Below are positions 4,127 through 42,320 of a DNA stretch of 64,000 nucleotides, in pieces. The DNA comes from Pseudomonadota bacterium (GTDB lineage: Bacteria > Pseudomonadota > Gammaproteobacteria > Xanthomonadales > Xanthomonadaceae), in NCBI GenBank assembly GCA_049323195.1, contig JBMOOW010000120.1, positions 4,814 to 68,813 on the forward strand. The letters run 5' to 3'. The position numbers and the translations under genes are program-made. The notes below the pieces were generated by a model. It was not told the DNA's origin. It saw only the letters and a list, made by a program, of their open reading frames with translations, and ran no database searches. Numbering within the stretch: position 1 is the first letter of the stretch; each line of letters begins with the position of its first letter.

Positions 4127-4149
4127 GCAACGACTATGGCCAGTCGGCT

Positions 4150-5997: not shown

Positions 5998-6000
5998 CGA

Positions 6001-6636: not shown

Positions 6637-6656
6637 GGTAGTCTCCTGGTAGGCCG

Positions 6657-7799
6657 TCAGCGGACGGCGCGGACGTTGAGTTCGTCGACCATCACCTGTG
6701 CGGCCTTTTCCGCGGCCAGGCTGAGGGCGTTGGTACGTGCCACCGTCTCGGTGTTGCCGATGCCGGCGAACTGCACGGGGCCGACAGACGAGAGAGTGCG
6801 TGGGAAGCGGCCGCTGACGTCGAGCACTTTGCCGGTTACGGTCACCGTCACGCGCACGAGTCCGCTTGCCGGGTCGGTATCGCGGATTCCCACGTCGAGC
6901 GTTCCGTAGGCGAGCAGCGGAATGGCGGCGCGCCTGACGCCATCGACGGTCGAGCGCAGCACCTCCGCGGAGAGATCGTTGCCCGTGCTGAAATCCTTGC
7001 GGATGCGCGCGACGCTGAGCTGGCCGCCACTCTGCGGCTCGACATACTCCGCCTGCACGACCTCGTAGCCGGCGCCGCTGAGCACGCCGGTCATGGCGCT
7101 GTCGACCTCGGAAGCCGTGGTTACCTTCCAGGCAATGCGGTCGGCCTTCTGCGTGCTGCTGCCGCCGGATTCGATCGTGCCGGAGAACGACTCGCGCCCG
7201 CTTCCGGTGCGGCTGATGACATCGGACGTGCCGATGCTGGAGGCGCCGATGCTCTCGCCCTCGCGCGTCCGCACGACGGTGGAGCCGCTGCTTGCGCTCT
7301 TTGCCTTCATGTCGACGCGGCGGTATTCGCGCGCCTCGAAGCTCTGCACGCTTTCCTGCATGCGCGCGACGAACACCGTCGCCATGAGTGAGCGTGCACC
7401 CTGCGACACCGCCGCGGTGGCGGCCCCGCCATCGAGCTCGGCACGCAACAGCGCACTGTCGATGTCGGCGCGCACCACGACCGAGTAGGTACCCATCTCC
7501 TTGTTGTCGTTGTCACTGAGCACGGTCGAGCCGACGACCAGCTGGTCGAGCTTGCCCATGAACTCGTCGCGGCGGTCTGCGAGGACCTTCGCCTTCGCGA
7601 CGGACGACTCCGAGACATGCGCCTGCAGGGCGGCGAACGTCGCCTTGCGCATGGCGGCCTGGCGGTCGGCTGGCTTGAGCTTGCCGGCGTACGTTACTGA
7701 CGCCATTCCCTTGCTGCTGACGACCTGTGCGTAGGCGTGACCGCTGGCGAGGAGGGTGATGGCAAGGACTATGGTTCGGAACAGGGCCTTCAGCGGCAT
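6657..7799 (-). CDS. secreted protein with LPP20/FlgP-like N-terminal region, unknown function
   Basis: ATG at 7799 gives MPLKALFRTIVLAITLLASGHAYA signal peptide; overlaps upstream gene stop by 10 nt. Confidence 0.7.
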   Translation of the reverse strand: MPLKALFRTIVLAITLLASGHAYAQVVSSKGMASVTYAGKLKPADRQAAMRKATFAALQAHVSESSVAKAKVLADRRDEFMGKLDQLVVGSTVLSDNDNKEMGTYSVVVRADIDSALLRAELDGGAATAAVSQGARSLMATVFVARMQESVQSFEAREYRRVDMKAKSASSGSTVVRTREGESIGASSIGTSDVISRTGSGRESFSGTIESGGSSTQKADRIAWKVTTASEVDSAMTGVLSGAGYEVVQAEYVEPQSGGQLSVARIRKDFSTGNDLSAEVLRSTVDGVRRAAIPLLAYGTLDVGIRDTDPASGLVRVTVTVTGKVLDVSGRFPRTLSSVGPVQFAGIGNTETVARTNALSLAAEKAAQVMVDELNVRAVR

Positions 7800-8959
7800 T
7801 GCTGCACGAGCTCCTTGAGGGATTTGAGTTGCTGGGTGAAGACGCGGCCGCCCGTCTGCTCCGACGCCCATGGCTTTGCGCCGCCGTCGAGCGACTGGGC
7901 AAGTGACGCGAAGCCAGCCAGGAGCGTCTCGTAATAGGCTCCGCTCGAGTCGACGATGTCCTGCGAGCCGGGGATGGCCTTGGTGCTGCCCTGCCGCAGC
8001 GGCTGATCGAGGTAGATGCGGCCGGAAAGCGGTTCGGACACCGTGACGTGGAAGAACGCGCCGTAGAGTTGCTGGCGGAAACCGCCCTGTTGCGAAAGCG
8101 TCTTGTCGCGCAGATCCTCGACCGTCACGTCGATGCGATAGTCCGGCTCGGGGATGCGCAGCTGGTGGACGCTACCGTCGGCGAAGCGCGCGGGCATCAC
8201 GCCGCCAATCGCCTGTCCCGCCGCATGGGGCAACATCGGCAAGCGCAGTGTCGATGCGAGGATCTTGGTGAACTCGTGCCCCACCAGCGCGGCATCGCGC
8301 TGCCCGGGTGCAAGCTTGCCGGCAGCGAGGTCCGACAGGCGCGTTCCGACCACCTGCAGGCGCCTCGACGACGCGTTCGGTAGCGAAAGCGACGCCAACT
8401 CGGCCGCGGTGACCTCGGGCAGGCGCCCCGGCCCTGTACCATCCAGCACTCGCGCCGCCATCGCCTCCAGCGCCGCTTCCGTCGGTGGCGCGTCGAACAT
8501 GTCGATGTACTGGAGCGTCAACGGGTACGCGAAAAGCACCTGCTTCTCGCGGAAGTCGAAGAACAGGGCCTGCCCGGCGAGCTCGTAGAGCACTTTCCAG
8601 CGGCCGTCGATGCGCTCCTGCGTGACGGTCTCGCGGTCGAGCGCCACGGCCATTACCAGCGACGCGCCGCTGCCATCGAGCACCTGCAGCCGCTCCGCAG
8701 GTGCCCAGGAGATGTGCCGTGCCGGAGTACGCTCCAGAGCATCACGCAGGCGCCGCGCATACGCCTGCAGACCGATCCGGCCCAGCACGGCACTGGCGTG
8801 CGGCAGCCGCTCGCCAGAGCCGGCCGCGGCGCCGGTATAGGCCACGCCCGCGAAGCCGACCTCGGCACGTTCCGCGGCCGGTGCGGCCGCCGCGATGGAA
8901 AGCAGGACAGCAACCCCCAACACCGCACGGCGCAGCGGCGCGGCCCAGCATGACGACAT
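7790..8959 (-). CDS. secreted protein, unknown function (first gene of envelope operon)
   Basis: 389 aa; signal-like N-terminus AVLGVAVLLSIAAAAPAAE; non-repetitive composition. Confidence 0.65.
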   Translation of the reverse strand: MSSCWAAPLRRAVLGVAVLLSIAAAAPAAERAEVGFAGVAYTGAAAGSGERLPHASAVLGRIGLQAYARRLRDALERTPARHISWAPAERLQVLDGSGASLVMAVALDRETVTQERIDGRWKVLYELAGQALFFDFREKQVLFAYPLTLQYIDMFDAPPTEAALEAMAARVLDGTGPGRLPEVTAAELASLSLPNASSRRLQVVGTRLSDLAAGKLAPGQRDAALVGHEFTKILASTLRLPMLPHAAGQAIGGVMPARFADGSVHQLRIPEPDYRIDVTVEDLRDKTLSQQGGFRQQLYGAFFHVTVSEPLSGRIYLDQPLRQGSTKAIPGSQDIVDSSGAYYETLLAGFASLAQSLDGGAKPWASEQTGGRVFTQQLKSLKELVQQCR

Positions 8960-9264
8960 TGATTCCCCTGTGCGCTAGGTCAGCGCCCGCTGCGCGAGGG
9001 CCGCGCATTCACGTTCGACATTGTGAAAGTCGCGTGAAAAGCGGCTATTGGAAATCTTCTGGGTCGAGTCAGGAGTTCTCCGCTAGTGCGGCCATGGAGA
9101 GGCGCGGCGCCGCCGTGGCGAAGGATTTCGGTGGGAGGCAAGGCGACGCGAGCCGCCGTGCTCCGTCTTGCGCCGTGCGCAGCGATCACCGCGGCAGGCC
9201 GAAACAAGGGCTGGTATTCGTGCCGCATGCGGGAACGTCGATTCCGGCAGCGTGTGCCGTCTTC

Positions 9265-11481
9265 TCAGCGACCCGGCGCACCCGTCGCCGAAGCGGGCCG
9301 CATGCGTTCGTGGAAGAGGTCCACCGGTTCCGGTCGCGCCAGGCCGAATCCCTGCGCCGCGTCCGCTCCCGCGCGGCGCAGCCATTCGAGCGTCTCGGCG
9401 TCCTCCACGCCTTCGGCGGTGGCCTTCGCGCCGAGGCTGTGCGCCAGTTCGATGGTCGAGCGCACGATGGCCTGGTCGGCCTCGGAGGCGACGACGCCGG
9501 CGATGAACGCGCGGTCGATCTTCACTTCGTCCGGCCGCAACTGCCGCAGGTAGGTCAGCGATGCGTTGCCGGTGCCGAAGTCGTCGAGCGAGACGCGCAC
9601 GCCATGCGACCGCAGTTCGCGCACCGCCGCCAGCGTGCGCTCGGCATCGCGCATCACGGCGGTTTCGGTGATCTCCAGCACCAGGCAGCCGGGCGCGCCG
9701 GCGACATGTTCGACGATGCCGGCGACCACGCGCGGGTCGACGAGGTCGTTGGCGGACACGTTGACGGCCAGCTCGATGTGCAGCTCCCGGCCGCACCACT
9801 GCCGGCAGAGTTCGACGGCATGGCCGATCAGGTAGAGCGTCATCTCGCCGATGACCTGCGTGCGCTCGGCAAGCGGTACGAAGTGGGAGGGGGGCAGCGG
9901 GCCGTGCTCGGGATGCGTCCAGCGCACGAGCATCTCCGCGCCGCAGACCTCGCCGGTCACGAGGTCGAACTTGGCCTGCAGCGCGAAGCCGAGGCTGCGT
10001 TCGGCGATTGCGCGTCGAAGGTCGGTCAGCAGCGTCAGGTTGCGCGGGTCGGGATCGAGGGAGGGGGTGTAGACCACCGACGAGCCGGGCACCGCGGCGG
10101 CGGCGGCCGAGGCGACGGTGGCGGCGCGCATGAGCGCACCGGGCTGCTCGGCGTGGATCGGGAACAGCGCGGCGCCGGCGGCGCAGGCCGGGTCGAGCGG
10201 CACCCCGTCGATCTCCAGCCTGCGCGAGGCCAGGGCCAACAGCTCCTCCATCGCGACTGCCGCGGCTGCCGCATCCACGGCCTCGTGGCAGACCAGGTAG
10301 AACGTGCCGCGACCGACGCTCGCCACCACCGGGCGGCCGCTATGCGTGGCCAGACGCTGCCCGAGTTCACGCAGCAGGTTGTCGGTGAAGGTGTGCCCGG
10401 TGATGGATTCGGTCAGGTGCAGGTCGAGCAGGTCGATGCGGACCAGGCCGAACGGCCGCCGCTGCGCGGTGCGCTCGGCCAGCGCGTCACGAAGGCCGGC
10501 GGTATTGAGGATGCCGGTCACCGGGTCGTGATGGAGCAACCGGTGCGCCTCGTGCTCGGCGCTGCGCTGCGAATGCACCGCCGTCGCCGCCAGACGTCGC
10601 ATGTGGCGCCAGCGCGCCAGGAAGAACAGCGCGATGCCGGCAAGGGGCAGCGCGATCCACAGCGCGACCAGCATGCCCGAGCGATGGCGTTCCGATGCGG
10701 GGGTCAGGTCGCCGAGCCAGTGCAGGTAGATGCGGTCGGCGGTGCCGCTGCGCATGGACTCCTGCAGGCCGGCATCGAGACGACGCAGCAGGTCGATGCG
10801 GTCGGGCGGCAACGCGAAGGCGTAGTCGCTGCTCAACAGCGGCGGGCTCAGCGGCACGACGTCGTCCACCCGGAAACGGCGCCGCGCGTAGAAGGCGGTC
10901 GTGGACGGCGCGAGCGCGAAGTCGGCGCGCCCGTCGGACACCGCGCGAACGGTGTCGCCTTCCTTTTCCACCTGCACGATGCGGACGCCGGGCATGCCGA
11001 CGAGCGCCTGCCAGGCGCGCCCCGCGCGCTGCACCGCCACGCGCTCGCCCGCGAGCTGGTCGAGCGATGCGATGAAACGGCCGCCGCGGCGTCCGAACAC
11101 GAGGTGATAGCGCTGCAGGTAGGGCTGGGTGAACAGAAGGCGCTGGCGGCGCTCCGGCGTGACGAGCATCGGGACCACGTCGACGGTGCCGGCCGACAGG
11201 CGTGTCTGGATGGCGAGCCAGTCGTCCAGCCGGATGTCCGCGAGCAGCCCCGCGCGCCGCGCGACATCGCGGAACAGTTCGACGTCGTAGCCCACGGGCC
11301 CCTGTTCGGGGTGTTCGAAGCTGAAGGGCGCGTAGTCGTGATCGGCCTGGAAGCGGATGCGTGCGCCCGGTGCGGCATCGCCATCGGCGGTGTGCGCCGA
11401 GGGCATCGGCAGTAACAGAATGATGGCGAGCAGTCGCGGCAGGCCGCGCTGCAGGCAGAGCTTCCATCGACTCGGCACCAT
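9265..11481 (-). CDS. periplasmic solute-binding-domain sensor with degenerate GGDEF and intact EAL domain (c-di-GMP phosphodiesterase)
   Basis: SBP_bac_3-like N-terminus, TM segment, GGDEF position reads GRGTF, EAL domain motifs AEMLVRW, NVSA, EITE, DDFGTG, KIDR, EGVE, QG; start 11481 preferred (11541 alternative). Confidence 0.85.
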   Translation of the reverse strand: MVPSRWKLCLQRGLPRLLAIILLLPMPSAHTADGDAAPGARIRFQADHDYAPFSFEHPEQGPVGYDVELFRDVARRAGLLADIRLDDWLAIQTRLSAGTVDVVPMLVTPERRQRLLFTQPYLQRYHLVFGRRGGRFIASLDQLAGERVAVQRAGRAWQALVGMPGVRIVQVEKEGDTVRAVSDGRADFALAPSTTAFYARRRFRVDDVVPLSPPLLSSDYAFALPPDRIDLLRRLDAGLQESMRSGTADRIYLHWLGDLTPASERHRSGMLVALWIALPLAGIALFFLARWRHMRRLAATAVHSQRSAEHEAHRLLHHDPVTGILNTAGLRDALAERTAQRRPFGLVRIDLLDLHLTESITGHTFTDNLLRELGQRLATHSGRPVVASVGRGTFYLVCHEAVDAAAAAVAMEELLALASRRLEIDGVPLDPACAAGAALFPIHAEQPGALMRAATVASAAAAAVPGSSVVYTPSLDPDPRNLTLLTDLRRAIAERSLGFALQAKFDLVTGEVCGAEMLVRWTHPEHGPLPPSHFVPLAERTQVIGEMTLYLIGHAVELCRQWCGRELHIELAVNVSANDLVDPRVVAGIVEHVAGAPGCLVLEITETAVMRDAERTLAAVRELRSHGVRVSLDDFGTGNASLTYLRQLRPDEVKIDRAFIAGVVASEADQAIVRSTIELAHSLGAKATAEGVEDAETLEWLRRAGADAAQGFGLARPEPVDLFHERMRPASATGAPGR

Positions 11482-30434: not shown

Positions 30435-31628
30435 TCAGCCGAACACGTCGGCCGGCACGCGCACCTGCCCTTCCATCAGCACCCGTGCACTGCGGCTCAT
30501 CACCGCCCGGGTCACGCACCACTGGCCGTCGACGCAGCGCACCTCGGCACCGGCGCGCAGCGTGCCGGAGGGATGGCCGAAGGTGACGATCGCGCGTTCG
30601 CCGCCGCCGGCGGCCTGGTTGACCAGGGTGCCCGGCACCGCCGCGGCGGTCGCGATGGCCACGGATGCCGTGCCCATCATGGCGTGGTGCAGCTTGCCCA
30701 TCGACATGGCGCGGGCCAGCAGGTCGACGTCGGCCGCGCGCACGGGCCTGCCGCTGGAGGCGACGTAGTCGCGCGGCGGCGCCACCCAGGCGATCTTCGG
30801 CGTGTGCTGGCGGGTGGCGGCTTTCGCGACGTCGTCGATCAGGCCCATGCGAAGCGCGCCATGGGCGCGGATGGCCTCCAGCCTGCGCAGCAACGCCGCA
30901 TCCTCGTTGATCGCCGGCTGCAGCTCGGTGCCGTCGAAGCCCAGGTCCGCGGCGCGCAGGAAGATCGTCGGGATGCCGGCGGCGATCAGCGTCGCCTCGA
31001 ACGTGCCCACGCACGGCACCTCCAGCGTGTCGACGAGCCGGCCGGTGGGGAACATCGCGCCGCCGTCGCCGTCGCCGTCATCGGAGGGGTCGACGAACTC
31101 CAGCGGGATCTCCGCCGCGGGGAAGGCCACGCCGTCGAGCTCGAAATCGCCGGTTTCCTGCACTTCGCCGTCCGCCATCGGCACGTGCGCCACGATCGTC
31201 TTGCCGATGTTGGCCTGCCAGATGCGCACGGTGCAGTGGCCGTCCCGCGGAACGCGCGAGGGATCGACCAGGCCATGGGCGATCGCGAACGGGCCGACCG
31301 CGGACGACAGGTTGCCGCAGTTGCCGCTCCAGTCCACCAAGGCGCTGTCGATGGCCACCTGGCCGTAGAGGTAGTCGACGTCGTGCCCGGGCACCGTCGA
31401 CTTCGAGATGATCACGCACTTGCTCGTGCTCGAGGTCGCACCGCCCATGCCGTCGGTGTGCTTGCCGTAGGGGTCGGGCGAGCCGATCACGCGCATCAGC
31501 AGTGCATCGCGCGCAGGGCCGGGCACGCGGACGGGCTCCGGCAGGTCCTCGAGCCGGAAGAACACGCCCTTGGACGTGCCTCCGCGCATGTAGGTGGCGG
31601 GGATGCGGAGCTGGGGGGTGTGCGTCAT
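30435..31628 (-). CDS. prpF: 2-methylaconitate cis-trans isomerase PrpF
   Basis: 397 aa; IPATYMRGGTSKGVFF, SKCVIIS, NCGNLSSAVGPFA family pattern. Confidence 0.9.
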   Translation of the reverse strand: MTHTPQLRIPATYMRGGTSKGVFFRLEDLPEPVRVPGPARDALLMRVIGSPDPYGKHTDGMGGATSSTSKCVIISKSTVPGHDVDYLYGQVAIDSALVDWSGNCGNLSSAVGPFAIAHGLVDPSRVPRDGHCTVRIWQANIGKTIVAHVPMADGEVQETGDFELDGVAFPAAEIPLEFVDPSDDGDGDGGAMFPTGRLVDTLEVPCVGTFEATLIAAGIPTIFLRAADLGFDGTELQPAINEDAALLRRLEAIRAHGALRMGLIDDVAKAATRQHTPKIAWVAPPRDYVASSGRPVRAADVDLLARAMSMGKLHHAMMGTASVAIATAAAVPGTLVNQAAGGGERAIVTFGHPSGTLRAGAEVRCVDGQWCVTRAVMSRSARVLMEGQVRVPADVFG

Positions 31629-31679
31629 GATCGGGTCGGCAGGTGTTGGCGGTGGTGCGATGGCGGATGACGCGGGCGG

Positions 31680-32243
31680 TTACCGCTGCGCCGCGCGGAA
31701 TTTAGGCAGGTCGGCGGGCGCACACAGGCGCTGCCGAAGAAGGTCGAGCGTGCGGTGATGGTCCGAGCGCAACTGCTCGTTCCGACCGAGCGAGGGATGC
31801 TTGAACAGCCCGTGCTCCCACAGCCCGGCAGCCGCTTCCGCGAGCGACTCGTCGCGCCATTCGAAGCCGAGCCAGGCCTCTGTCCGGCGGCCGTTGATCG
31901 AGGCCAGCAGGCTGCGGTCGCGCGCCTGGCCGAAGCTGAAGCCGGACGCGAACGCCGCGGCTTCGGCGTCCACCCGCGGCCCCTCGATGCCGAAGTACGC
32001 GCAGAGCGAAGCGAACTGCAGGGCGGCGCGCTCGTGCAGCGCCTTCAGGCCCGCGGCGTTGCCGTTGAGCACGAGCGTGGCGCCGGTGGACGCGTTGAGC
32101 ACCAGCACGAAGGGCTTGCGGTTCCAGAAGTCGACATCCGCATGCCACTCGCCGAGCGGGTTCAGCTGCGGCGAAGGCTCCGGCAGCTTCGGAGACTGGC
32201 GCAGGCGCTTGAGCAGCTTGGCCGTGCAGCGCAGGACGGTCAT
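31680..32243 (-). CDS. hypothetical protein (possibly DUF6933-like), last gene of the defence operon
   Basis: 187 aa; start forms ATGA with the stop of the Res-like gene; MTVLRCTAKLLKRL...LGEWHADVDFWNRKPFVLVLNASTGATLVL. Confidence 0.65.
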   Translation of the reverse strand: MTVLRCTAKLLKRLRQSPKLPEPSPQLNPLGEWHADVDFWNRKPFVLVLNASTGATLVLNGNAAGLKALHERAALQFASLCAYFGIEGPRVDAEAAAFASGFSFGQARDRSLLASINGRRTEAWLGFEWRDESLAEAAAGLWEHGLFKHPSLGRNEQLRSDHHRTLDLLRQRLCAPADLPKFRAAQR

Positions 32244-35200
32244 GGGGCGGGCCCCGCGGCGAGGATCGCCGCGATCACGTGCGCGTAATCGGCCTGCGGG
32301 AACAGGATGTGCCGGGCCGCGAAGTCGGTCTCAGTCCACGGCACGCCCCAGCGGTCGCATAGTTCCGCGAGCGGCGTTTCCGAAACGATCCACGCATCGA
32401 CTTCGATGTCGCTCCGTCCGGCAGCCGCCAGCCCGGGCGCGACGTAATCGCGCAGGCGCGTGTGGAAGTCGGTCACCTTGTCGCCGCCGCGGCTCTCGTT
32501 GAGCAGCCCATGCGGCTCGACGAAGACGACGCGGTGGCGCCGTCCGTCGGTCGTCCACAGGATGAAGTCCGGAAAGAAACCTTCGCTCTCGTAAAAGCCC
32601 AGCCCGTGCCCGCGCGACTGATTGCGCAGCAGGTAGAGGCGCTGACCGGCGGGCAGCCGTCCAGCCTCGCAGTGCACCCGGAGCGCATCGACGAAGTCGT
32701 GTTCCGAGCGGCTAAGACCCTTGGGCGAAACGCTCACCCCCTCCACGCTCTCGTCTTCGGCGACGAGCAGGGGCTGATAGAGATGCCGGTCGAAACCGGA
32801 CCGTGCGATCTGCGGGAAGTCGCCTGCCGCGGGCGGGCGACCGGCCGCGAGGTCAGCCGCAAGGCGCTGCAGCTCGGCGATCAACGGCTGCCGGTCCACC
32901 CGCACCACGACGCGATACGGGCGGTACTGCGCCTGCGCTTCGCCGACCCGGGTCACGCGCATGTGCTGCGTCTCGAACTGCTTCTGCTGGCGGCGGTAAT
33001 CACGCTCGAACCAGGTTTCCAGCGCCTCGAACACGGCTTCCTGCAGGCGGCCCAGCGCGGCGTCATCCGCAGGCTTGAAGAAATCATCGTCTGCGATGAA
33101 CTGGCAATGCGACGCGACCAGCTCGCGCAGTTGCACCGGCCGCAGCACGACGTTAGTCCAGCCCCGCACGCGCTTTTTCTCGAGCAGACGGAAGTAGGCG
33201 CGCGTCCAGTCCACCAGTCCGAGCAGGCTTGGCGGAAGGTCGCGCGGGGGCGCTCGCTCGCCCGTGCCACCTTCCAGGCCCGCGCTGCCACCCCGGTAGT
33301 GGGAAAAGCGCGACGTCGCATCGTGCCGCACCGGCATTCTCGCCTGCAGGCCTAGGCCCACCACGCGCTCGGTTCGGAACCGCGATTCGCCCGGTGGCTC
33401 GAAATAGGGCAGGTCGGCGACGCCCGCGTCGTGCGCATCCAGGCGCCAGAGCGGCAGCTCGATCACGACGGACGGCAGGTCGTCCACGCCCTCGCGCAGC
33501 AGCGCCTCGCGGAACGTCCGCATGTACGAGGCATGCACCGAGAACACATTGAGCTGCTCGAGCCAGCGGATGTCCGGCGGATGCTCGATGCCGGGCAGTG
33601 CGGAAGAGCGCTTCAGGCTGCGGCCCAGGCCCAGCAGGCGCACGCCACGCCCGAACAGCTGGATGATCTGCGCGCCTTCCTTCTTGCCGACGTTGAGCAA
33701 GCCGAGGCTGCTGACGCGCCAGCTGCTCCAGCCTTCGATGAACTTCTTCGCGCCGATCAGCAGGTGGATGCCCGAATCGCGCCGGTCGATCTCCCGGAAC
33801 AGCGAGCCGCCGACCACGTCGTCGAGCACGGTCACGCCGTCGGCCTTCAGCAGCTTCTCGAGCGCGCTGGTGTCGCCCACGTTGACCACGCCGAAAGGCC
33901 GGGCGGCGCCTTCCGCACGCAGCGCCATTTCGCCGTCCGCGTCCCGGATGGGCTGCACCTGCAGGCGGCTGGCAGCGCCTTCGACGTGGAAGACGCGCGA
34001 GAGCACATCCGCCAGCAGCGCGTCGAAGTCGGCGTTCTCGGGATAGCGGCCGCGCAGCCAGTCCAGGGCCTCGTGAAGCGCGGCACGCCCGTCCTCGCCG
34101 CGGAACAGCCGCGCATCGTGCAGCAGGCGCTTGACCAGCCGCGCCGATTCGCCGCGGCGGTTGGTCAGGAACGCATCGAGGAAATGCAGCACGGCGGCGA
34201 TGTCCGACCCGCCCGTCTTGCCGCTGTCCACCCGCGCGCCCACGTACACCCACAACGGCCTCTCGATGCCGTACGGCCGCCAGTCCGTGCCGTCGGCATG
34301 CACGCGCAGCTGCTGGTAGTAGCTGAGCAGGTTGGCGGCCATCAGCCGGCGGCGAATGTCCTCGTCCTCGCTGTCCACGTTCAGCAGGCGGAAGTCCTTG
34401 CCGAAGCCGTCGCCGTGGAAGTAGCGGTACGAGTAGTCAAAGAGGATGGCCTTACCGTACTCGGCCAGCAGGTCCTCATTGCCTGCCGCGTTGAGCGCCT
34501 GCCCGAAGGTGGCGCTGTACTCGAAGGTGAAGCCGCTCGCGCCCAGCGCGTCGCGGTAGCCCTTCCACACGGTGCCACCGCTGCCCTTGTGGCCCTCGTC
34601 CACGAAGACGAGATTCGGCACGTCGCGACGGACCAGCTGCTCGACGGGCACACGGACGCCGCCATCCTTCTTTTCGTCCACCAGCTTGGTGATCTCGATC
34701 ACCTGTACCGCGTCGCTGGCGCCCACCAGCGGGGGGCGCTCCGGGTCAAAGCGCTCGATCGCGATCCCCGAGGCGCGCGCCTCGGCGATGTGCTGGGCCG
34801 ACAGGCCTTCGTTGGGCGTGATCAGCAGGATGTTGTTGACCGGGCCCGGGAAGTAATGCCGGTACTGCATCACGTGGAAGTGCAGCAGCAGGGTCTTGCC
34901 GCTGCCGGTGGCCATCCAGAAGGCCAGCTTGCGCAAATCGTCCCGGCCGAAGGGCCGCGCACCGGCGAAATCGGCCTGCGTCGCGGCGAAGCGGTTCAGG
35001 CTGTCGAGCAGGGCGCCGGGTGCGTTGGCGAGCCGGTCCAGGTAAAGCTCCGTGAACAGCAGCGCGAGCACCTGGAAGTAGCGCAGCTGCAGCGGCTGCG
35101 CGGCGCGGGCGCGGTTGATGCGCTCGAGGTGGGCGCGGATGTTGGCGTCGAACCGCAGAAGGTCTTTCTGCAGGGCCGCGTCGCGCACGTAGCCGATCAG

Positions 35201-35425
35201 TGCCCGGGTGACGTGGAACACGCCGTCGACGCCCACGCCCTCCTGCACGGCGGCACAGCGCGCCAACAGGGTGCGGTTGTCCGGCTGGCCGAGCAGGTGC
35301 AGCGCCCAGCGCAGCAGCACGAGGCGCTGCTCCAATCGCGCGGTCATGAGCGATGCCGAGCCCGCCGGGTTGGTGGCGGCAGGCGCGGTGGCCGTTGCTG
35401 TTGCGGCGCGTCTTGCGCGCGGCAT
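32240..35425 (-). CDS. type III restriction Res-like SF2 helicase with C-terminal PD-(D/E)xK-like nuclease module
   Basis: ATG at 35425 (TGATG with HepT stop); motif I WMATGSGKT, II FVDEGHKG, III YSATFG, EGWSS, VI QLFGRGVRL; C-terminus FFPDFILW...VVFVEPHG. Confidence 0.82.
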   Translation of the reverse strand: MPRARRAATATATAPAATNPAGSASLMTARLEQRLVLLRWALHLLGQPDNRTLLARCAAVQEGVGVDGVFHVTRALIGYVRDAALQKDLLRFDANIRAHLERINRARAAQPLQLRYFQVLALLFTELYLDRLANAPGALLDSLNRFAATQADFAGARPFGRDDLRKLAFWMATGSGKTLLLHFHVMQYRHYFPGPVNNILLITPNEGLSAQHIAEARASGIAIERFDPERPPLVGASDAVQVIEITKLVDEKKDGGVRVPVEQLVRRDVPNLVFVDEGHKGSGGTVWKGYRDALGASGFTFEYSATFGQALNAAGNEDLLAEYGKAILFDYSYRYFHGDGFGKDFRLLNVDSEDEDIRRRLMAANLLSYYQQLRVHADGTDWRPYGIERPLWVYVGARVDSGKTGGSDIAAVLHFLDAFLTNRRGESARLVKRLLHDARLFRGEDGRAALHEALDWLRGRYPENADFDALLADVLSRVFHVEGAASRLQVQPIRDADGEMALRAEGAARPFGVVNVGDTSALEKLLKADGVTVLDDVVGGSLFREIDRRDSGIHLLIGAKKFIEGWSSWRVSSLGLLNVGKKEGAQIIQLFGRGVRLLGLGRSLKRSSALPGIEHPPDIRWLEQLNVFSVHASYMRTFREALLREGVDDLPSVVIELPLWRLDAHDAGVADLPYFEPPGESRFRTERVVGLGLQARMPVRHDATSRFSHYRGGSAGLEGGTGERAPPRDLPPSLLGLVDWTRAYFRLLEKKRVRGWTNVVLRPVQLRELVASHCQFIADDDFFKPADDAALGRLQEAVFEALETWFERDYRRQQKQFETQHMRVTRVGEAQAQYRPYRVVVRVDRQPLIAELQRLAADLAAGRPPAAGDFPQIARSGFDRHLYQPLLVAEDESVEGVSVSPKGLSRSEHDFVDALRVHCEAGRLPAGQRLYLLRNQSRGHGLGFYESEGFFPDFILWTTDGRRHRVVFVEPHGLLNESRGGDKVTDFHTRLRDYVAPGLAAAGRSDIEVDAWIVSETPLAELCDRWGVPWTETDFAARHILFPQADYAHVIAAILAAGPAP

Positions 35426-35769
35426 CAGCCCGCCCCCTGGAGCAGGGCATCGACCTGCGCACGCAAGCCCGGCAAACGCGTCTGCACGATGTCCCAGACC
35501 AATGCATCGTCCACGTCCGCATAGCCGTGGATCAGGATGTTGCGGAAGGCGATGATGCGACGATGGTCCCCGATGCGCGCCAGCAGCGCGGGGTCGCGCC
35601 GGCCGAGCTGGGCAAGCGCCTCGCCGATGATCTCGAACTGGCGCTCCACCGCCGCGCGCAGCATCGCGTCGCGTTCGTAGTCTTCCCACTGCTTCCCCGC
35701 CACGAAGTCGTGCAGGCGCTGCGCGGCGCTCTGCACGTCGAACAGGTACTTGGCGGATTCAAGCCGCAT
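35425..35769 (-). CDS. hepT: HepT-like (DUF86/HEPN) toxin
   Basis: ATG at 35769; MRLESAKYLFDV...AVERQFEIIGEA...IIAFRNILIHGYADVD (Rx4H motif); overlaps the MNT gene by 11 nt. Confidence 0.82.
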   Translation of the reverse strand: MRLESAKYLFDVQSAAQRLHDFVAGKQWEDYERDAMLRAAVERQFEIIGEALAQLGRRDPALLARIGDHRRIIAFRNILIHGYADVDDALVWDIVQTRLPGLRAQVDALLQGAG

Positions 35770-36079
35770 AGAGCGCCTCGCGCTGGCCTTCGATGGCCTG
35801 CCGGAAGAAGGGATTGCGGATGGCGCGCTCGACCACGAGATCCACGGGGGCATCGAACAGCTGTTCGAGGTCCTCGCGCAGGCCGAAGTAGGCCTCGGCG
35901 TACGCGCCCGGGGGCAGCGGCTCGAAGTCCACCAGCAGGTCCACGTCGCTGCCCGGATGGCCTTCGCCGCGAGCGAGCGAGCCGAACAGCTCCAGCCGTC
36001 GCACGTGGCGGCGGCGGCAGACCGTGGCGATGGCCTCGCGCTGGGCGGTGACACGGGCACGCAGGTCGAGGGCGGACAT
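35759..36079 (-). CDS. mntA: MNT-type nucleotidyltransferase antitoxin
   Basis: 106 aa; LELFGSLARGEGHPGSDVDLLVDF minimal nucleotidyltransferase motif. Confidence 0.82.
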   Translation of the reverse strand: MSALDLRARVTAQREAIATVCRRRHVRRLELFGSLARGEGHPGSDVDLLVDFEPLPPGAYAEAYFGLREDLEQLFDAPVDLVVERAIRNPFFRQAIEGQREALYAA

Positions 36080-36083
36080 AGCT

Positions 36084-38912
36084 TCAGTGCACCGGCGCGA
36101 ACATGCACGCGTGGAAGACAGGGTCGAGCGACTGCGCGCCGGACAGGGCGGAATCGCCGTTGACGTAGATCACGGTGGCGTCCTCGAACGGCGCCTGTGC
36201 GGCGAGCCAGTCCCGCTCGGCGGCGAAGTCGTCCGTGGTCCAGCCGTCGATGTCGCGCCAGAGCACGGCGGTGGGTGCGTCGTCGGCGCGGGTGCGGCCC
36301 AGAACCAGCACGTAGCGCCGGCCGTCGCGGTGCAGCACGCGGCGACGGCGGACGATCAGGCCGATGAGGTAGTTGAAGGTCTCGACTAGGTCCACCGCCT
36401 GCTCGCGCGACTCGCGGCCGTCGTGCACACGCAGCGTGTAGTCGAACGGGCGCTCGAGCTTCTCCACGTCGAGCAGGCTGGGGCTGCCGGCGGTCTCCAC
36501 GTCGAGCCAGTACCCCAGGCGATAGCTCTCCGGAACCGCGTCGAAGTCGAAGCCCGGCTGCGTGTCCTCGGCCTTGCGGACGCGGAGGTTGGAGAGGGTG
36601 TCTTCGTAGGATTCGAGGCGGAGGTACTTGAATACCCCACCGCGGGGGAAGCCGTACTTTTCCGAAATCCCGTAACGGTCGCCAAACAAGACCTTCTTTA
36701 GGCGTGGCAGCGCATATCGGTCAAAATTCTCACCCATCTCGATTGCCACCCACCTGCGCCCCGACTTGTAGGCGACTGCAGCGGTCGTTCCCGAGCCGAC
36801 GAACGCATCAGCTACGTAATCCCCGACATTCGAGGAGGACGTAATCAGCCTTTCGACGAGGGCTTCATTCTTCTGCGTCAGCGATTGGTCACCGACCTTT
36901 TCCTTGCTGAAGCTGACGATTTGAATTGAATTGAGCGCGTCGATCTCCGAACAATTCCATGTGTCTTCAAGCGGATAGCCAGCCCCGTCCGGCGCATTGC
37001 CATCACGCCTCACATATCCCGGAGGATAGGGGATGTATTGTTTGTTGAAGAATACATTTCCGCTCTTGCCGTACTGGTAGATCGTGTCATGGTTGCGGAT
37101 GAACTTGTTTGCTGTGCTCTTGTACCCCGATATCCAGCCGATACGCCAGATGATCTCTGTGATGTAGGTGTATCGCTCGTCGAGCAATAGCTTCAGCCGC
37201 TCTTTCTCATAGTAGTCGATGTGCGCGTAAAGCGTGCCACTGGGCGACAGCAATTCGTAAAGCGCGGCCGTGCATCCCTGCATCATCGAGAGCCAGCTCG
37301 AATGCCGATATGCATCTCGATAGTAGAAGTCACCGAGCCCCGTGTTGAAAGGCGGATCGATATATACGCACTGTACATCGGCAAGATAACGTGCCGAAAC
37401 TAGGTTCAGCGCCTGCCAGTTGTCGGCGCGGATCATCACGCCGCTGGTACTGTTTTCGTCGTCTCCAATGCTTTCGAGCAGTTCCAATTCCAGGTCCGTG
37501 GGGAGGTGCGCAGTGTCGAGTACCAGAAACGGCTGACTCCGCAAGAACTCCGCCGTCACCTTCTCCTTCCACCCCGGCTTCCCGCCCTCTGCCTTCACTT
37601 CGTCGATCGCGAAGAGCTTCTTCCACTCCGCCTTCTGCGCCTTGCCGCCCTCGGTGGTGTTGAGGATCTCCACGAGCCGCTCGGTGAGCCCCGCACGTTC
37701 GACGTGATCGAGGGTGATGCACCAGTGGCACTCGGTCACGAACTTGCGCTTTTCGTACAGGCGCTTCTGGAAGTCCTCGACGCGGGCGAGGAAGTCGATG
37801 ATGGTGGTGGCCACCTCGCGCAGGCAGGCCAGTGTCTGCAGCCAGGCGCGCGCGGGTTGTTCGCCGGCCAGTAGCGTGTCGAGCTTCAGGACTTCGGCCT
37901 TGAGCCAGTAGTCGAGCTCGCGGGTGAGGAAGCCGCGCAGATCCTTGTGGATGAAAAAGTCGCTGGTGTTGCGCCGGGTGTAGCGGCGCAGGTGTTGGGC
38001 GAGCACGGTGCGCGGGGTGTCGCCGCTGCCGGGCGCTTCGGCCTCCAGGGCCGCCTTGAGCGCGGGCTGGGCCTTTACAGGTTTCGCGGCGAGCAGCTTC
38101 TTCTCGACGTCGGCGTTGATGGCGTCCTGCGCGTTTCGCGCCGGCAGCGTGGTCGCCTCGGTGGACGTGGCCGCGCGCCATTGCACGGGAACGGTCAACG
38201 TGCGTGTGGCGGCGTCGAGTTGCGCAGCGGCCGTGTCGGCGAAGAAGTAGCGCTTTTCGGCGGACTTGGTGTTGTCGCGGTCGGTCTCGGCCCGCTGCAG
38301 GCGGAACTCCACGTGCCAGGCGTCCGCACCCGTTCCGGCACGGAAACGGTAGTCGGTGAAATGCTCGCCGGTCTTGACGTAGTACTGGTCGCGGTTGGCC
38401 CAGTGCAGCATCACTTCCTGCCCGTTGTAGGGCAGGGCATAGGCGTCCTCAGCGCCGTAGCGGCGCAGGCTGAGGAAGTCGCCGTCCTCGTAGTAGCGGC
38501 GGAAGAAGTCGTAGAGGCGGTTGTAGATCTCGGCTTCGCGGTCCTGCGGCTGCCCGGCGGCCTGACGGGCTTCCCACTGCTCGCGGTACTCGCGGGCGGT
38601 GCGGCCGCGGATGTCGTCGCGCAGGCGGCCGTCGCCGTCAATGATGCTCTCGCCCTCGTATTCCTCGCGCAGCTCGGCGGCGAGTTCCGCCAGGCGCCTG
38701 GCCTGCCCGTCCACCTGCGCGGCGGCACCGCCCGCCAGTGCCTGCTTCACGGCGGCGGGAAGGCGCGTGGTGAGCCAGTCCTCGAACAGGGCGCGACGCT
38801 CGTTGAGGATGCGGTAGATGCCGAAGTCGAGGTCGGCGCAGTCGTACTGGAAGAGCTCGCGCAGCAGCGTCTGGAACTTCTGCAGGGCGGGCGAGGCGGG
38901 CTCAAGGGTCAT
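36084..38912 (-). CDS. large beta-class (Mod-like) N6-adenine/N4-cytosine DNA methyltransferase
   Basis: 942 aa; motif IV VYIDPPFNTG precedes motif I AFVGSGTTAAVA; IRADNWQALNLV pre-motif typical of type III Mod; ~450-aa N-terminal extension with DLDFGIYRILN. Confidence 0.88.
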   Translation of the reverse strand: MTLEPASPALQKFQTLLRELFQYDCADLDFGIYRILNERRALFEDWLTTRLPAAVKQALAGGAAAQVDGQARRLAELAAELREEYEGESIIDGDGRLRDDIRGRTAREYREQWEARQAAGQPQDREAEIYNRLYDFFRRYYEDGDFLSLRRYGAEDAYALPYNGQEVMLHWANRDQYYVKTGEHFTDYRFRAGTGADAWHVEFRLQRAETDRDNTKSAEKRYFFADTAAAQLDAATRTLTVPVQWRAATSTEATTLPARNAQDAINADVEKKLLAAKPVKAQPALKAALEAEAPGSGDTPRTVLAQHLRRYTRRNTSDFFIHKDLRGFLTRELDYWLKAEVLKLDTLLAGEQPARAWLQTLACLREVATTIIDFLARVEDFQKRLYEKRKFVTECHWCITLDHVERAGLTERLVEILNTTEGGKAQKAEWKKLFAIDEVKAEGGKPGWKEKVTAEFLRSQPFLVLDTAHLPTDLELELLESIGDDENSTSGVMIRADNWQALNLVSARYLADVQCVYIDPPFNTGLGDFYYRDAYRHSSWLSMMQGCTAALYELLSPSGTLYAHIDYYEKERLKLLLDERYTYITEIIWRIGWISGYKSTANKFIRNHDTIYQYGKSGNVFFNKQYIPYPPGYVRRDGNAPDGAGYPLEDTWNCSEIDALNSIQIVSFSKEKVGDQSLTQKNEALVERLITSSSNVGDYVADAFVGSGTTAAVAYKSGRRWVAIEMGENFDRYALPRLKKVLFGDRYGISEKYGFPRGGVFKYLRLESYEDTLSNLRVRKAEDTQPGFDFDAVPESYRLGYWLDVETAGSPSLLDVEKLERPFDYTLRVHDGRESREQAVDLVETFNYLIGLIVRRRRVLHRDGRRYVLVLGRTRADDAPTAVLWRDIDGWTTDDFAAERDWLAAQAPFEDATVIYVNGDSALSGAQSLDPVFHACMFAPVH

Positions 38913-39283
38913 TCGGTGGGGTCCGGAGAGACGTGCAGTGCGTCGGCGGGCGTGTCGTTCAGGGCGTCGAGATCCCGGGAGGCGTGCCAGATCCGGACGA
39001 CGCTGATATGGGTAGGCTGATCCACGTAGTAGACGAGATACCTGTCGAAGCCGCGTACGTGTAGAAGGCGCAGCGGCGCCGGCAGGACCGGGATCATCCG
39101 AGCATGGCGCGCGGAGCCGATTTCGGGGAAGGCGGCGATGTGCGCGAGCGTGGTGTCCAGCGCGTCGAGGAATCGCTCACCCAGCGCCAGTCCGCCGTGC
39201 AGGGCGTAGCGCCAAGCGGTTTCCGAGGCGTCCGCTTCGGCCTGCGGCCGCCACTCAATTGCCTTCACGAGCCCAGCGGTCAC
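38909..39283 (-). CDS. parE: ParE/RelE-family toxin
   Basis: KAIEWRPQAEADASE...FPEIGSARH...LRLLHVRGFDRYLVYYVDQPTHISVVRIWHASRD; GTG starts at 39283 (AAGGA 5 nt upstream) or 39268; stop forms ATGA with the methyltransferase start. Confidence 0.78.
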   Translation of the reverse strand: MTAGLVKAIEWRPQAEADASETAWRYALHGGLALGERFLDALDTTLAHIAAFPEIGSARHARMIPVLPAPLRLLHVRGFDRYLVYYVDQPTHISVVRIWHASRDLDALNDTPADALHVSPDPTE

Positions 39284-39512
39284 GCAGATCCTTGCGCATG
39301 CGGTCGAACCTGGCCGCGTCCACGGGAACGGCCAGGCCGGACGCCAGTCCCTCGGCGATGGCCTGCCGCAACGCCTCCTCGGCCTTGGCGCGCTGCCGCT
39401 GGCGCAGCAGGTCGCGCATGTAGTCCGACGTGCTGGCGAAACCGCCCTCGCGGACTTCCTCGTCCACGAACTGCTTGAGCGGATCGGGGAGGGAGATGTT
39501 CATGGTGGCCAT
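39255..39512 (-). CDS. parD: ParD-family (RHH) antitoxin
   Basis: 85 aa; MNISLPDPLKQFVDEEVREGGFASTSDYMRDLLRQ. Confidence 0.78.
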   Translation of the reverse strand: MATMNISLPDPLKQFVDEEVREGGFASTSDYMRDLLRQRQRAKAEEALRQAIAEGLASGLAVPVDAARFDRMRKDLRDRWAREGN

Positions 39513-39523
39513 AGCCGGGCCTT

Positions 39524-39542
39524 GATGGCAAAGATTGCCATC
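39524..39542. promoter_or_regulatory. perfect 8-3-8 palindrome just upstream of parD (candidate ParD operator)
   Basis: GATGGCAA-AGA-TTGCCATC, 12-30 nt upstream of the parD ATG; a TTGATA hexamer lies immediately upstream on the coding strand. Confidence 0.4.
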
Positions 39543-39704
39543 GGAGTATCAATGCGGCGCAGTGGGCGGGCAAGTGCTTTGGCTGGGGATGACCGCTTCG
39601 TTACCCCTCACCGCAACCCCTCCCCCCGGGGCGAGAGGGGCTCCCGGTTCAGCATGAGCCTGCTGCTCACTGGCAGCGGGCCTTCGCTCCCGGGGAGGGC
39701 TTGA

Positions 39705-42320
39705 TCAGGCCGCGTTGCGGTTGCCTTCGAGGAAATCGTTCGCGAAGCGCTGCAGCACGCCGCCAGCCTCGTAGATCGAGACCTCCTCGGCGGTGTCCAG
39801 GCGGCAGGTCACGGGCACTTCGACGGTCTCTCCACTGCGGCGGTGGATCAGCAGCGTGAGCGTGGCGCGCGGGGTGCGCTCGCCGACGACGTCGAAGGTC
39901 TCGGTGCCGTCGATGCCCAGCGTGAGGCGGCTGGTGCCGGGCTGGAACTCCAGCGGCAGCACGCCCATGCCGATCAGGTTGGTGCGGTGGATGCGCTCGA
40001 AGCCCTCGGCGACGATCGCCTCCACGCCCGCGAGCCGCACGCCCTTGGCCGCCCAGTCGCGCGAGCTGCCTTGGCCGTAGTCGGCGCCGGCGATGATGAT
40101 CAGCGGCTGCCGGCGCTCCATGTAGGTCTCGATCGCCTCCCACATGCGCGTCACCGTGCCATCAGGTTCGATGCGCGCGAGCGAGCCCTGGCGCACTGTG
40201 CCGTCCTCGGCGCGCACCATCTCGTTGAGCAGCTTCGGGTTGGCGAAGGTGGCGCGCTGCGCGGTGAGGTGGTCGCCGCGGTGCGTGGCGTAGGAATTGA
40301 AGTCCTCCTCCGGCACGCCCATCTTCGCGAGGTACTCGCCCGCGGCGGAGTTCGCGAGGATCGCGTTGCTGGGCGAGAGGTGGTCGGTGGTGATGTTGTC
40401 GCCCAGCACCGCCAGCGGGCGCATGCCGCGCAGCGTGCGCTCGCCGGCCAGCGCGCCTTCCCAGTACGGCGGGCGGCGGATGTAGGTCGACATCGGGCGC
40501 CAGTCGTAGAGCGGCTTCACCGGCTCGCCGTGCTCCACGCGCAGCTTGAACATGGGCTCGTAGACGCGGCGGAACTGCTCGGGGCGCACGTGCTCGCGCA
40601 CGATGGCATCGATCTCCTCGTCCGTCGGCCACAGGTCCTTGAGCGTGAGCGCGCGGCCGTCGCTGCCGGTGCCCAGCACGTCCTTCTCGATGTCGAAGCG
40701 GATGGTGCCGGCGATGGCATAGGCCACGACCAGCGGCGGCGAGGCCAGGAAGGCCTGCTTGGCATAGGGGTGGATGCGGCCATCGAAGTTGCGGTTGCCG
40801 CTGAGCACCGCGACGGCATACAGGTCGCGCTCGATGATCTCCTGCTGGATGGCCGGGTCCAGCGCGCCGCTCATGCCGTTGCAGGTGGTGCAGGCGAAGC
40901 CGACGATGCCGAAGCCCAGCGCTTCCAGGTGCGGCAGCAGGCCCGCCTCCTGCAGGTAGAGCTCCACGGCCTTCGAGCCCGGCGCGAGCGAGGTCTTGAC
41001 CCAGGGCTTGCGCACCAGGCCGAGCTCGTTCGCCTTCTTCGCAAGCAGCCCCGCCGCGATGACGTTGCGAGGGTTGGAGGTGTTCGTGCAGCTGGTGATC
41101 GCAGCGATGATCACCGCGCCGTCGGGCATCAAGCCACTGGCTTCCTGCGCGCGCGCGGCCTCGAGGTCCCGGGCGATGCCGCGCTCGGCCAGCGCCGTGG
41201 TCGGCAGGCGGCGGTGCGGGTTGGACGGGCCGGCCATGTTGCGCACGACGGTCGAGAGGTCGAAGGTCAGCGTGCGCTCGTACTGGGCGTCCACCAGCGC
41301 ATCGGCCCAGAGCCCGGCCGCCTTCGCATAGGTTTCGACCAGCTGCACCTGCTGCTCGTCGCGGCCGGTCAGGCGCAGGTAGTCGAGGGTGTTGTCGTCG
41401 ATGAAGAACATCGCCGCGGTGGCGCCGTACTCGGGCGCCATGTTGGAGATCGTCGCGCGATCGCCCAGCGTGAGCGCGCGCGCGCCCTCGCCACGGAACT
41501 CCAGGTAGGCGCCGACGACCTTCGACTGTCGCAGGAACTCGGTGAGCGCGAGCACGATGTCGGTGGCGGTGATGCCCGGCTGCGGACGGCCGGTGAGCTC
41601 CACGCCGACGATCTCGGGCAGGCGCATCCAGGAGGCGCGGCCGAGCATCACGCTCTCGGCTTCCAGGCCGCCCACGCCCACGGCGATAACGCCCAGCGCG
41701 TCCACGTGCGGCGTGTGCGAGTCGGTGCCCACGCAGGTATCCGGGAAGGCCACGCCGTCGGCCACGTAGACCACCGGCGACATCTTCTCCAGATTGATCT
41801 GGTGCATGATCCCGTTGCCCGGCGGGATCACGTCGACGTTCCTGAAGGCGTGCTTGGTCCACTCGATGAAGTGGAAGCGATCCTCGTTGCGGCGCTCCTC
41901 GATCGCGCGGTTCCTGGCGAACGCATCCGGATCGAAGCCACCGCATTCGACCGCGAGCGAGTGGTCGACGATCAGCTGCGTAGGCACCACCGGATTGATC
42001 TGCGCCGGGTCGCCGCCACGCTCGGCGATGGCGTCGCGCAGGCCGGCGAGGTCAACCAGCGCGGTCTGGCCGAGGATGTCGTGGCAGACCACGCGTGCGG
42101 GGAACCAGGGGAAGTCGAGGTCGCGGCGGCGCTCGACGAGCTGGCGCAGGTAATCGCCGATGCGGTGCGGCTCGGCACGGCGCACGATGTTCTCGGCATG
42201 CACGCGCGAGGTGTAGGGCAGGCCGTCCCATGCGCCCGGCTGGATCGCCTCCACCGCCTCGCGGGCGTCGAACCAGTGCAGCGAGGTGCCGGGAAGGGGC
42301 TTGCGGTGGGCGGTGTTCAT
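39705..42320 (-). CDS. acnD: Fe/S-dependent 2-methylisocitrate dehydratase AcnD (aconitase family)
   Basis: ATG at 42320; 871 aa; aconitase motifs GTDSHT, ITSCTNTSNP, CTTCNG, DNITTDHLSPS, GQGSSRDWAAKG. Confidence 0.93.
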   Translation of the reverse strand: MNTAHRKPLPGTSLHWFDAREAVEAIQPGAWDGLPYTSRVHAENIVRRAEPHRIGDYLRQLVERRRDLDFPWFPARVVCHDILGQTALVDLAGLRDAIAERGGDPAQINPVVPTQLIVDHSLAVECGGFDPDAFARNRAIEERRNEDRFHFIEWTKHAFRNVDVIPPGNGIMHQINLEKMSPVVYVADGVAFPDTCVGTDSHTPHVDALGVIAVGVGGLEAESVMLGRASWMRLPEIVGVELTGRPQPGITATDIVLALTEFLRQSKVVGAYLEFRGEGARALTLGDRATISNMAPEYGATAAMFFIDDNTLDYLRLTGRDEQQVQLVETYAKAAGLWADALVDAQYERTLTFDLSTVVRNMAGPSNPHRRLPTTALAERGIARDLEAARAQEASGLMPDGAVIIAAITSCTNTSNPRNVIAAGLLAKKANELGLVRKPWVKTSLAPGSKAVELYLQEAGLLPHLEALGFGIVGFACTTCNGMSGALDPAIQQEIIERDLYAVAVLSGNRNFDGRIHPYAKQAFLASPPLVVAYAIAGTIRFDIEKDVLGTGSDGRALTLKDLWPTDEEIDAIVREHVRPEQFRRVYEPMFKLRVEHGEPVKPLYDWRPMSTYIRRPPYWEGALAGERTLRGMRPLAVLGDNITTDHLSPSNAILANSAAGEYLAKMGVPEEDFNSYATHRGDHLTAQRATFANPKLLNEMVRAEDGTVRQGSLARIEPDGTVTRMWEAIETYMERRQPLIIIAGADYGQGSSRDWAAKGVRLAGVEAIVAEGFERIHRTNLIGMGVLPLEFQPGTSRLTLGIDGTETFDVVGERTPRATLTLLIHRRSGETVEVPVTCRLDTAEEVSIYEAGGVLQRFANDFLEGNRNAA

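Follow-up and report, generated by a model that had tools for sequence, protein, structure and literature searches.

The 64,000-nucleotide (nt) stretch of Xanthomonadaceae DNA analysed here (contig JBMOOW010000120.1 of assembly GCA_049323195.1, positions 4,814 to 68,813; hereafter the window) harbours a gene pair encoding a minimal nucleotidyltransferase (MNT) and a HEPN/DUF86 protein (HepT) between the mod and res genes of a restriction-modification (R-M) operon. Comparison with related loci suggests that this pair is probably a self-contained, portable type VII toxin-antitoxin cassette, present as an autonomous cargo that was inserted precisely into the mod/res overlap of a long-form Type III-like R-M operon. 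The position of the pair had been recognised in an initial annotation of the window, and the coordinates, motifs and quoted peptide strings given there were all confirmed (Table 1).

The MNT contains FGSLARGEGHPGSDVDLLVDF, in which G33-S34-X10-D45-V46-D47 is an exact GSX10DXD motif, and HepT contains FRNILIHGY, in which R76-NILI-H81-G-Y83 is an exact RX4HXY motif. Together these motifs define the AMPylation-dependent HepT/MntA (type VII) system, where RX4HXY provides the RNase Arg and His and the AMP-acceptor Tyr (PMC7641770). In that system MntA AMPylates HepT, while unmodified HepT cleaves RNA and halts growth (PMC7641770). The initial annotation had considered that the window's HepT might prove to lack catalytic residues on alignment. 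R76, H81 and Y83 were found to be intact, and were invariant in alignments of 14 and of 18 close and distant homologues. HepT scored 78.2 bits against PF01934 (cut-off 23.5), and the MNT matched the Thermus minimal nucleotidyltransferase (PDB 1wot_A, 1.6e-10) and the PADLOC defence-candidate family PDC-S09 (6.6e-32). For neither protein, nor for the DUF6933 protein encoded downstream of res, was there a match in PHROGs or any sign of phage origin.

A single-sequence phmmer search of the PDB with HepT returned no match, and a profile search was needed. The HepT family profile matched Shewanella HepT (5yep_B and 6m6u_B, E 5.4e-06), with Y83 aligned to Y104, the residue which receives three AMPs in the Shewanella toxin; the Y104A variant 6m6w scored below 5yep_B and 6m6u_B in this search. 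An AlphaFold2 model of HepT had a mean predicted local distance difference test score of 89.8 and a predicted template modelling score of 0.83. When this model was compared with the PDB by Foldseek, ranks 1-21 were all HepT/HEPN toxins from the Shewanella and Aphanizomenon systems (probability 1.00, TMq 0.60-0.73), and the fold matched 5yep, 6m6u and 7ae8 with TMq values of 0.64-0.73. In sequence and modelled fold, the pair is a predicted type VII MntA/HepT toxin-antitoxin system. It resembles Shewanella oneidensis HepT/MntA (SO_3166/SO_3165) and the Aphanizomenon HEPN-MNT system in being a PF01934/PF01909 pair with the MNT gene upstream and the two genes overlapping, and in carrying both motifs exactly, with Y83 in the place of the AMPylated Tyr. 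Unlike those systems, the window's HepT is only some 15% identical in sequence to the solved toxins, the pair lies inside a Type III mod-res operon without space for a promoter region of its own, and its scores against the NCBIfam equivalog models fall under the cut-off.

The partner genes also resemble those of a Type III system, and both are atypically long. The Mod protein has the motif order of the beta class, with YIDPPFNTG upstream of DAFVGSGTT, and its 942 amino acids (aa), about 480 of them in a conserved N-terminal region, make it much longer than a classic Mod; 5771 homologues were found at E<=1e-20. Res contains the helicase motifs ATGSGKT and DEGH. At its C-terminus, the motif of the putative PD-(D/E)xK nuclease reads PD...EPH, with His in place of the canonical Lys; this is the majority state of the family, some members having DPK. 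The mod gene lies upstream of res on the same strand in one packed block. By its sequence features, the Mod/Res pair is assigned to Type III. The central segment of mod has a GC content of about 0.52, against 0.70 around it, and is the sole part of the locus that could not be aligned to the Lysobacter sp. N42 locus, where Mod is 1025 aa long; this segment is probably a recently swapped target-recognition region. In one clade of Mod/Res (loci L014, L072, L083, L114 and L115; compared loci are referred to by such numbers) an SNF2-related gene was present directly upstream of mod, and this gene is absent from the window's lineage. Conjugative IncF plasmids from Klebsiella and Escherichia coli are among the carriers of this SNF2-bearing clade; L114 is the E. 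coli plasmid NZ_CP018955.1 and L115 is the Blastomonas plasmid NZ_CP020084.1.

The insertion point was located by comparing relatives with and without the pair. Lysobacter sp. N42 (L010), with about 90% nucleotide identity to the window, carries all seven genes at the corresponding site between acnD and prpF, and a metagenome contig (L009, Mod 76% identical) has the order Mod-MNT-HepT-Res in different flanks. The sister of L009, L011 (mod 76% identical), has mod and res without an insert, and its mod/res junction is CACTGATGTCG, including a TGATG in which the mod stop and the res start have one base in common. The window's junctions read CACTGA-AGCT-ATG...(MNT, HepT)...GGGCTGA-TGCCG, with the same CACTGA as in L011, which places the cassette exactly at the native overlap of stop and start. 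With the HepT stop codon, res regains a TGATG coupling. According to the initial annotation, the MNT gene starts 4 nt beyond the end of mod, and one base is common to the HepT stop and the res start; the AGCT spacer and the TGATG at 35427-35423 bear out both. The MNT and HepT genes, a dyad on one strand with MNT upstream, overlap each other by 11 nt. The res start at the overlap is regarded as valid because the Arg/Ala/Thr-rich N-terminus of Res is kept in L009, L010 and L011. An alternative start at Met27, with a 78-nt spacer before it, was rejected, since this Met is missing from L010 and conservation covers the N-terminal extension.

The sole repeat flanking the insert was a 4-nt CTGA microhomology at both of its ends. 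A repeat search around the cassette gave weak GC-rich matches only, with no terminal inverted repeats or attC-like sites. The GC content of the cassette (0.68-0.70) does not mark it as foreign to its host (0.70). A promoter and terminator scan of positions 31400-39800 gave nothing above the shuffled expectation, such a scan being weak at 70% GC. When the window was compared with L010, L009 and the R-M-free locus L100, the ratio of nonsynonymous to synonymous substitutions (dN/dS) was 0.11-0.24 for HepT and 0.20-0.32 for MNT. The synonymous divergence from L010 was 0.29-0.36 for MNT and HepT, comparable to that of res (0.28) and of prpF. Neither gene is disrupted and purifying selection acts on both; these values imply that MNT and HepT have been maintained, and co-inherited with the R-M genes, from the divergence of those lineages onwards.

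The survey of homologous mod/res pairs that the initial annotation had proposed was performed by a metagenome search with the Mod alignment. Mod, Res, MNT and HepT were mapped on 80 loci, the best of at least 585 matches in one collection (31-45% identity), of which 14 were uninformative and about 67 informative; an earlier genome-contig search with a single Mod protein had yielded 6 distant loci. In this Mod family mod is normally followed directly by res, as had been stated initially, the two genes being adjacent or overlapping in about 54 of the approximately 67 informative loci. MNT-HepT was present at the junction in 7 loci, or about 10% (L023, L031, L050, L053, L067, L078 and L087). About 6 loci had other cargo there: GmrSD_N in L013 and L030 (the latter judged by its first residues), an OLD-family AAA_15 plus TOPRIM protein in L028, an SMC-like protein with Schlafen/AlbA_2 in L035, a DarT-Macro fusion in L038 and a 239-aa protein without an assigned family in L085. 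In L006, from the earlier genome search, the junction holds DUF6932 and a second, unassigned protein. The cargo in this slot is unrelated in kind and ranges from 0.6 to 3.8 kb.

In the Mod tree, carriers of MNT-HepT were spread over at least 5 clades, all of which include sisters without the insert, and the cassette was incongruent with Mod: L023 and L087 have 74% identity in Mod, 34% in HepT and 40% in MNT. These comparisons indicate that MNT-HepT has been captured at the mod-res junction independently at least five times. A single ancient MNT-HepT clade dedicated to R-M systems was rejected, as the embedded HepTs of other Mod lineages were only 27-39% identical to the window's and free-standing ones 63-80% identical. 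Packing was extremely tight in the independent lineages too: mod was followed, among other arrangements, by an ATGA overlap or a gap of 2 nt, and res was preceded by TAATG, TGATG or a gap of 3 nt. L023 was the sole lineage with a long (90-nt) gap after mod, and its cassette is flanked by CACAAAGACACAAAG-type direct repeats (positions 4113-4160 and 4828-4900 of L023), which may be an insertion footprint. In L050 (3559-3924), the embedded HepT has a 14-nt deletion which removes the L-I-H-G-Y codons, including the catalytic His and Tyr, and shifts the frame; this represents either an inactivated toxin or an assembly error.

The movement of the native TGATG coupling from mod/res to HepT/res might also be read as an expression-timing device. 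The insert would lengthen the path from mod to res and make translation of res depend on that of MNT-HepT, so delaying or damping restriction in a new host; R-M systems need Mod to act before Res (see the review PMC12707154). This seems very improbable. Most members of the family use direct mod-res coupling, the slot is filled by cargo as varied in kind and length as that listed above, and the toxin or nuclease nature of the cargo is left unexplained.

Relatives of the window's HepT number in the thousands, many of them 65-95% identical, whereas relatives of Mod fall from 76% to about 50% identity. The genomic contexts of HepT proteins 68-80% identical to the window's were sampled, a small sample of about six site contexts. 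Several lacked any R-M gene. In L100-107 the order was acnD-ParDE-MNT-HepT-prpF, and in L117 it was acnD-AAA_14/DUF4143-HTH-MNT-HepT-prpF. L100 and L117 both have a 35-codon remnant of the 5' end of prpF upstream of MNT, which marks a separate insertion. Derivation of the acnD-ParDE-MNT-HepT-prpF arrangement from the window's locus by deletion of mod and res was judged unlikely in view of this remnant and of a ParDE identity of only 36-46%. In Thermomonas, Luteimonas and a proteobacterial metagenome-assembled genome (MAG) (L092-L099, L113 and L116), MNT-HepT lies directly upstream of the Amidohydro_2 gene of a kynurenine operon, and the gene directly before the pair in Thermomonas brevis-like contigs is a Type IIG R-M gene. 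A Type I operon was found in L109-L112 (HsdM-MNT-HepT-...-HsdS-TPR-HsdR), where the MNT ATG overlaps the hsdM stop, and ORF6N and TPR genes precede hsdR. In L108 (Metallibacterium sp. MAG, 5222-11286), MNT-HepT (HepT 75% identical) lies directly upstream of a classic-size Type III mod-RhuM-res operon. The L108 Mod is 576 aa and its Res 871 aa, with the RhuM gene between them, and an extra Polbeta-like gene stands alongside MNT-HepT. R-M neighbourhoods thus appear clearly over-represented among the homes of MNT-HepT in this small sample, with three R-M types as partners. These contexts agree better with a generic association, be it as defence-island cargo, as a second layer or for stabilisation, than with a specific PrrC-like protein interface.

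In most of the R-M-free loci, a gap of 2-9 nt separates HepT from the next gene (prpF or Amidohydro_2), or the two overlap. This tight packing before metabolic genes means that the packing beside res is no evidence of a functional lock, and it calls for a more general caution: close packing within an operon is by itself weak evidence of functional coupling when the same cassette is equally packed in metabolic operons. The initial proposal that expression of the toxin is locked to the R-M genes stands in part. Co-expression is made very likely by the packing, but a PrrC-like functional lock does not follow, as R-M-free HepTs are equally tight.

A purely selfish hitch-hiker might account for the same contexts. 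A promoter-less cassette would insert at tolerant stop/start junctions, borrow the expression of the operon and persist by addiction, with no role in defence, and might stabilise the R-M locus as a side effect. The occurrence of the same cassette clade in metabolic operons (prp and kynurenine), 2-9 nt from the next gene, is consistent with such a life style, as are the prpF remnant as an insertion scar, the lack of any promoter- or terminator-like site above chance within the block, and the L050 deletion, which is what would be expected of a decaying toxin. We regard this as a real but rather unlikely possibility. An occupancy of about 10% at one junction, with at least five independent captures, is far above the expectation for random junctions; all other domain-identified cargo at the mod-res junction is defence-related, and the MNT itself matches the PADLOC candidate family PDC-S09.

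The initial annotation had compared the locus with the anticodon nuclease PrrC. In a guard of this kind HepT would be held in check by Mod/Res, or would monitor them, and would be freed once restriction is disabled by a phage anti-restriction factor, as a second line of abortive infection linked mechanistically to the window's R-M system. PrrC of the EcoprrI Type Ic hsd locus is likewise a HEPN-superfamily RNase whose gene is inside an R-M operon, so that restriction and suicide layers are encoded together (PMC3710099). The position between mod and res with translational coupling, the recurrent independent capture at the same junction and the other toxin or defence cargo in the same slot would all suit such a guard, as would the fact that this hypothesis has been published for HEPN genes in R-M operons (PMC3710099, PMC3506569). 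However, PrrC is a large ABC-ATPase-HEPN fusion without an antitoxin gene, whereas the window's HepT is a bare 114-aa protein with a single PF01934 domain, without an ABC or Rad50-like NTPase sensor, and has a dedicated enzymatic antitoxin predicted to AMPylate it. The R-M complex keeps PrrC silent until the Stp peptide of phage T4 releases it. The host of PrrC is a Type Ic system and not a Type III system, and close relatives of the window's HepT occur without any R-M partner. The R-M-free HepTs are of the same length as the window's, and the embedded protein has no added segment that its free-standing relatives lack. The pairing of one clade with three R-M types argues against a specific protein-protein interface with the window's Mod/Res. 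On these grounds PrrC-like coupling was set aside, and a guard of this type is considered improbable here.

The second-line abortive-infection idea itself is already published for HEPN genes in R-M operons. In two surveys (Makarova 2012, PMC3506569; Anantharaman 2013, PMC3710099), many Type I and Type III systems are described as including HEPN, Sir2, ParB or restriction endonuclease toxin-like genes, with repeated toxin displacement, and embedded HEPN toxins are interpreted there as second-line abortive infection. A review of 2025 still lists this coupling as a hypothesis (PMC12707154). The present locus belongs to the same class of association as those catalogued in 2012 and 2013, here with GmrSD, OLD and DarT-Macro in the same slot. 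Within the portions of PMC3506569 and PMC3710099 consulted and the other literature searched, no description was found of an MNT-DUF86 dyad at a mod/res stop/start overlap, of a base-precise rebuilding of the overlap, or of a count of independent captures in the long-form Type III family; no specific study of MNT-HepT in R-M operons, or of type VII systems in phage defence, came up in the literature searches. GmrSD-family BrxU inside a BREX island is a further parallel, as an accessory effector carried inside another defence locus and acting independently (PMC12707154). BrxU is a single Type IV nuclease whose independence was shown, whereas the window has a toxin-antitoxin pair for which independence is deduced from comparison.

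If the pair is an autonomous cassette, as we favour, the MNT would consume ATP in oligo-AMPylating HepT at Y83, a neighbour of the RNase site R76/H81, and so keep the toxin silent; unmodified HepT would cleave RNA and arrest growth, by analogy with the characterised systems. Control would be exerted by its own antitoxin and not by Mod or Res. The context suggests that the pair is transcribed with mod and res, and that translation of Res is now coupled to termination of HepT. From the comparative data, the link to restriction would consist of shared transcription and translation only. The module would repeatedly land in R-M operons of several types and in other operons, with the mod-res junction of the long-form Type III family serving as a slot for MNT-HepT or for other defence cargo. 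The benefit would most likely be an independent second layer, in the form of growth arrest or abortive infection and/or an addiction which stabilises the locus.

Several points weigh against this explanation. Its weakest step is the re-activation of a type VII toxin, and the defence role is therefore conjecture. Toxicity, AMPylation and a phage phenotype are all predictions for the window's pair. Against the NCBIfam equivalog models (NF047751 and NF047752), the pair scored 42.7 bits for HepT_toxin and 45.6 bits for MntA_antitoxin (5.3e-12), under the equivalog cut-off of 60. This shortfall reflects a naming threshold built on close relatives of characterised pairs and is not in conflict with the Pfam, motif and fold evidence. 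The survey covered the best 80 of at least 585 matches in one collection, and the contexts of HepT relatives were few. That captures have converged repeatedly on one junction, and that 4 of about 6 sampled site contexts had an R-M neighbourhood, could point to a functional link with restriction closer than the one favoured here. In a further reading, the mod-res junction would be a selected slot in which second-line effectors (MNT-HepT, GmrSD-like, OLD, DarT-Macro and Schlafen-like) are swapped. MNT-HepT would then be a generic guardian of R-M systems, with a general affinity for Types I, IIG and III and no specific protein contact, which reads a failure of expression or restriction through the loss of coupled MNT synthesis and responds with RNase-mediated arrest. 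We consider this unlikely.

A HEPN toxin in an R-M operon is unsurprising to a specialist; the pairs of loci with and without the cassette, together with the convergent architecture, make the coupling hypothesis directly testable. R-M and toxin-antitoxin modules are the two most abundant prokaryotic defence or addiction elements, and cooperation as the reason for their frequent co-location has been a hypothesis since 2012-2013, with almost no experimental tests beyond PrrC. The locus is a natural experiment in this respect, as the cassette is present in the close relatives L009 and L010 and absent from L011, and the insertion point is known to the base; the convergence of independent lineages on the same architecture adds to it.

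The block as a whole comprises seven tightly packed minus-strand genes between an AcnD-type aconitase gene and prpF, identified from the open reading frame listing, by direct reading, and by Pfam, NCBIfam and PADLOC scans (Table 1). The same set was reproduced by independent gene calls on two metagenome contigs. The initial annotation was incomplete only in omitting the flanking ParDE pair and the DUF6933 gene.

Table 1. Features of the mod-MNT-HepT-res block and its flanks (window coordinates)
Feature	Coordinates	Strand	Evidence or remark
AcnD-type aconitase (acnD)	42419-39705	-	Upstream flank of the seven-gene block
ParD-family antitoxin, 85 aa, first gene of the block	39255..39512	-	TIGR02606 1.4e-15; Pfam RHH_1/ParD_antitoxin
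ParE-family toxin, 124 aa	38909..39283	-	PF05016 1.1e-12; stop overlaps mod ATG (ATGA)
Mod, long-form Type III-like N6/N4 DNA methyltransferase, 942 aa	36084..38912	-	PF01555 1.4e-37; PADLOC MTase_III PDLC03646 5.3e-136
Low-GC central segment of mod	36640..37525	-	GC profile; alignment to L010
Upstream insertion junction: mod stop TGA (36086-36084) and spacer AGCT, then MNT ATG	36080..36086	-	Sequence
MntA-type minimal nucleotidyltransferase antitoxin (MNT), 106 aa	35759..36079	-	PF01909 (NTP_transf_2) 1.9e-15
HepT, predicted HEPN RNase toxin, 114 aa	35425..35769	-	PF01934 (HepT-like) 5.3e-22
Downstream insertion junction TGATG, HepT stop and res ATG with one base in common	35423..35427	-	Sequence
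Res, predicted superfamily 2 (SF2) helicase-nuclease subunit, 1061 aa	32240..35425	-	PADLOC REase_III PDLC03654 4.5e-128; PF04851 (ResIII) 5.4e-06
DUF6933 protein, 187 aa	31680..32243	-	PF22016 4e-20; ATG overlaps res stop
prpF	31628-30435	-	Downstream flank of the seven-gene block

ParDE was found upstream of mod in the same arrangement in L007 and L010. The window's ParE was only 50% identical to that of Lysobacter sp. N42, while the flanking genes were 90-97% identical, and the DNA-level alignment of parD with L100 was limited to the first 17 or so codons; the ParDE module is therefore mosaic. The DUF6933 gene was also kept in L007 and L010, with a weak match to the PADLOC defence-candidate family PDC-S63 (9.6e-06), and its product may be an accessory subunit of the window's R-M lineage. 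The gap between acnD and prpF in the propionate operon is an insertion hot spot, and relatives with about 81% identical acnD DNA carry the L100-107 or the L117 arrangement in it.

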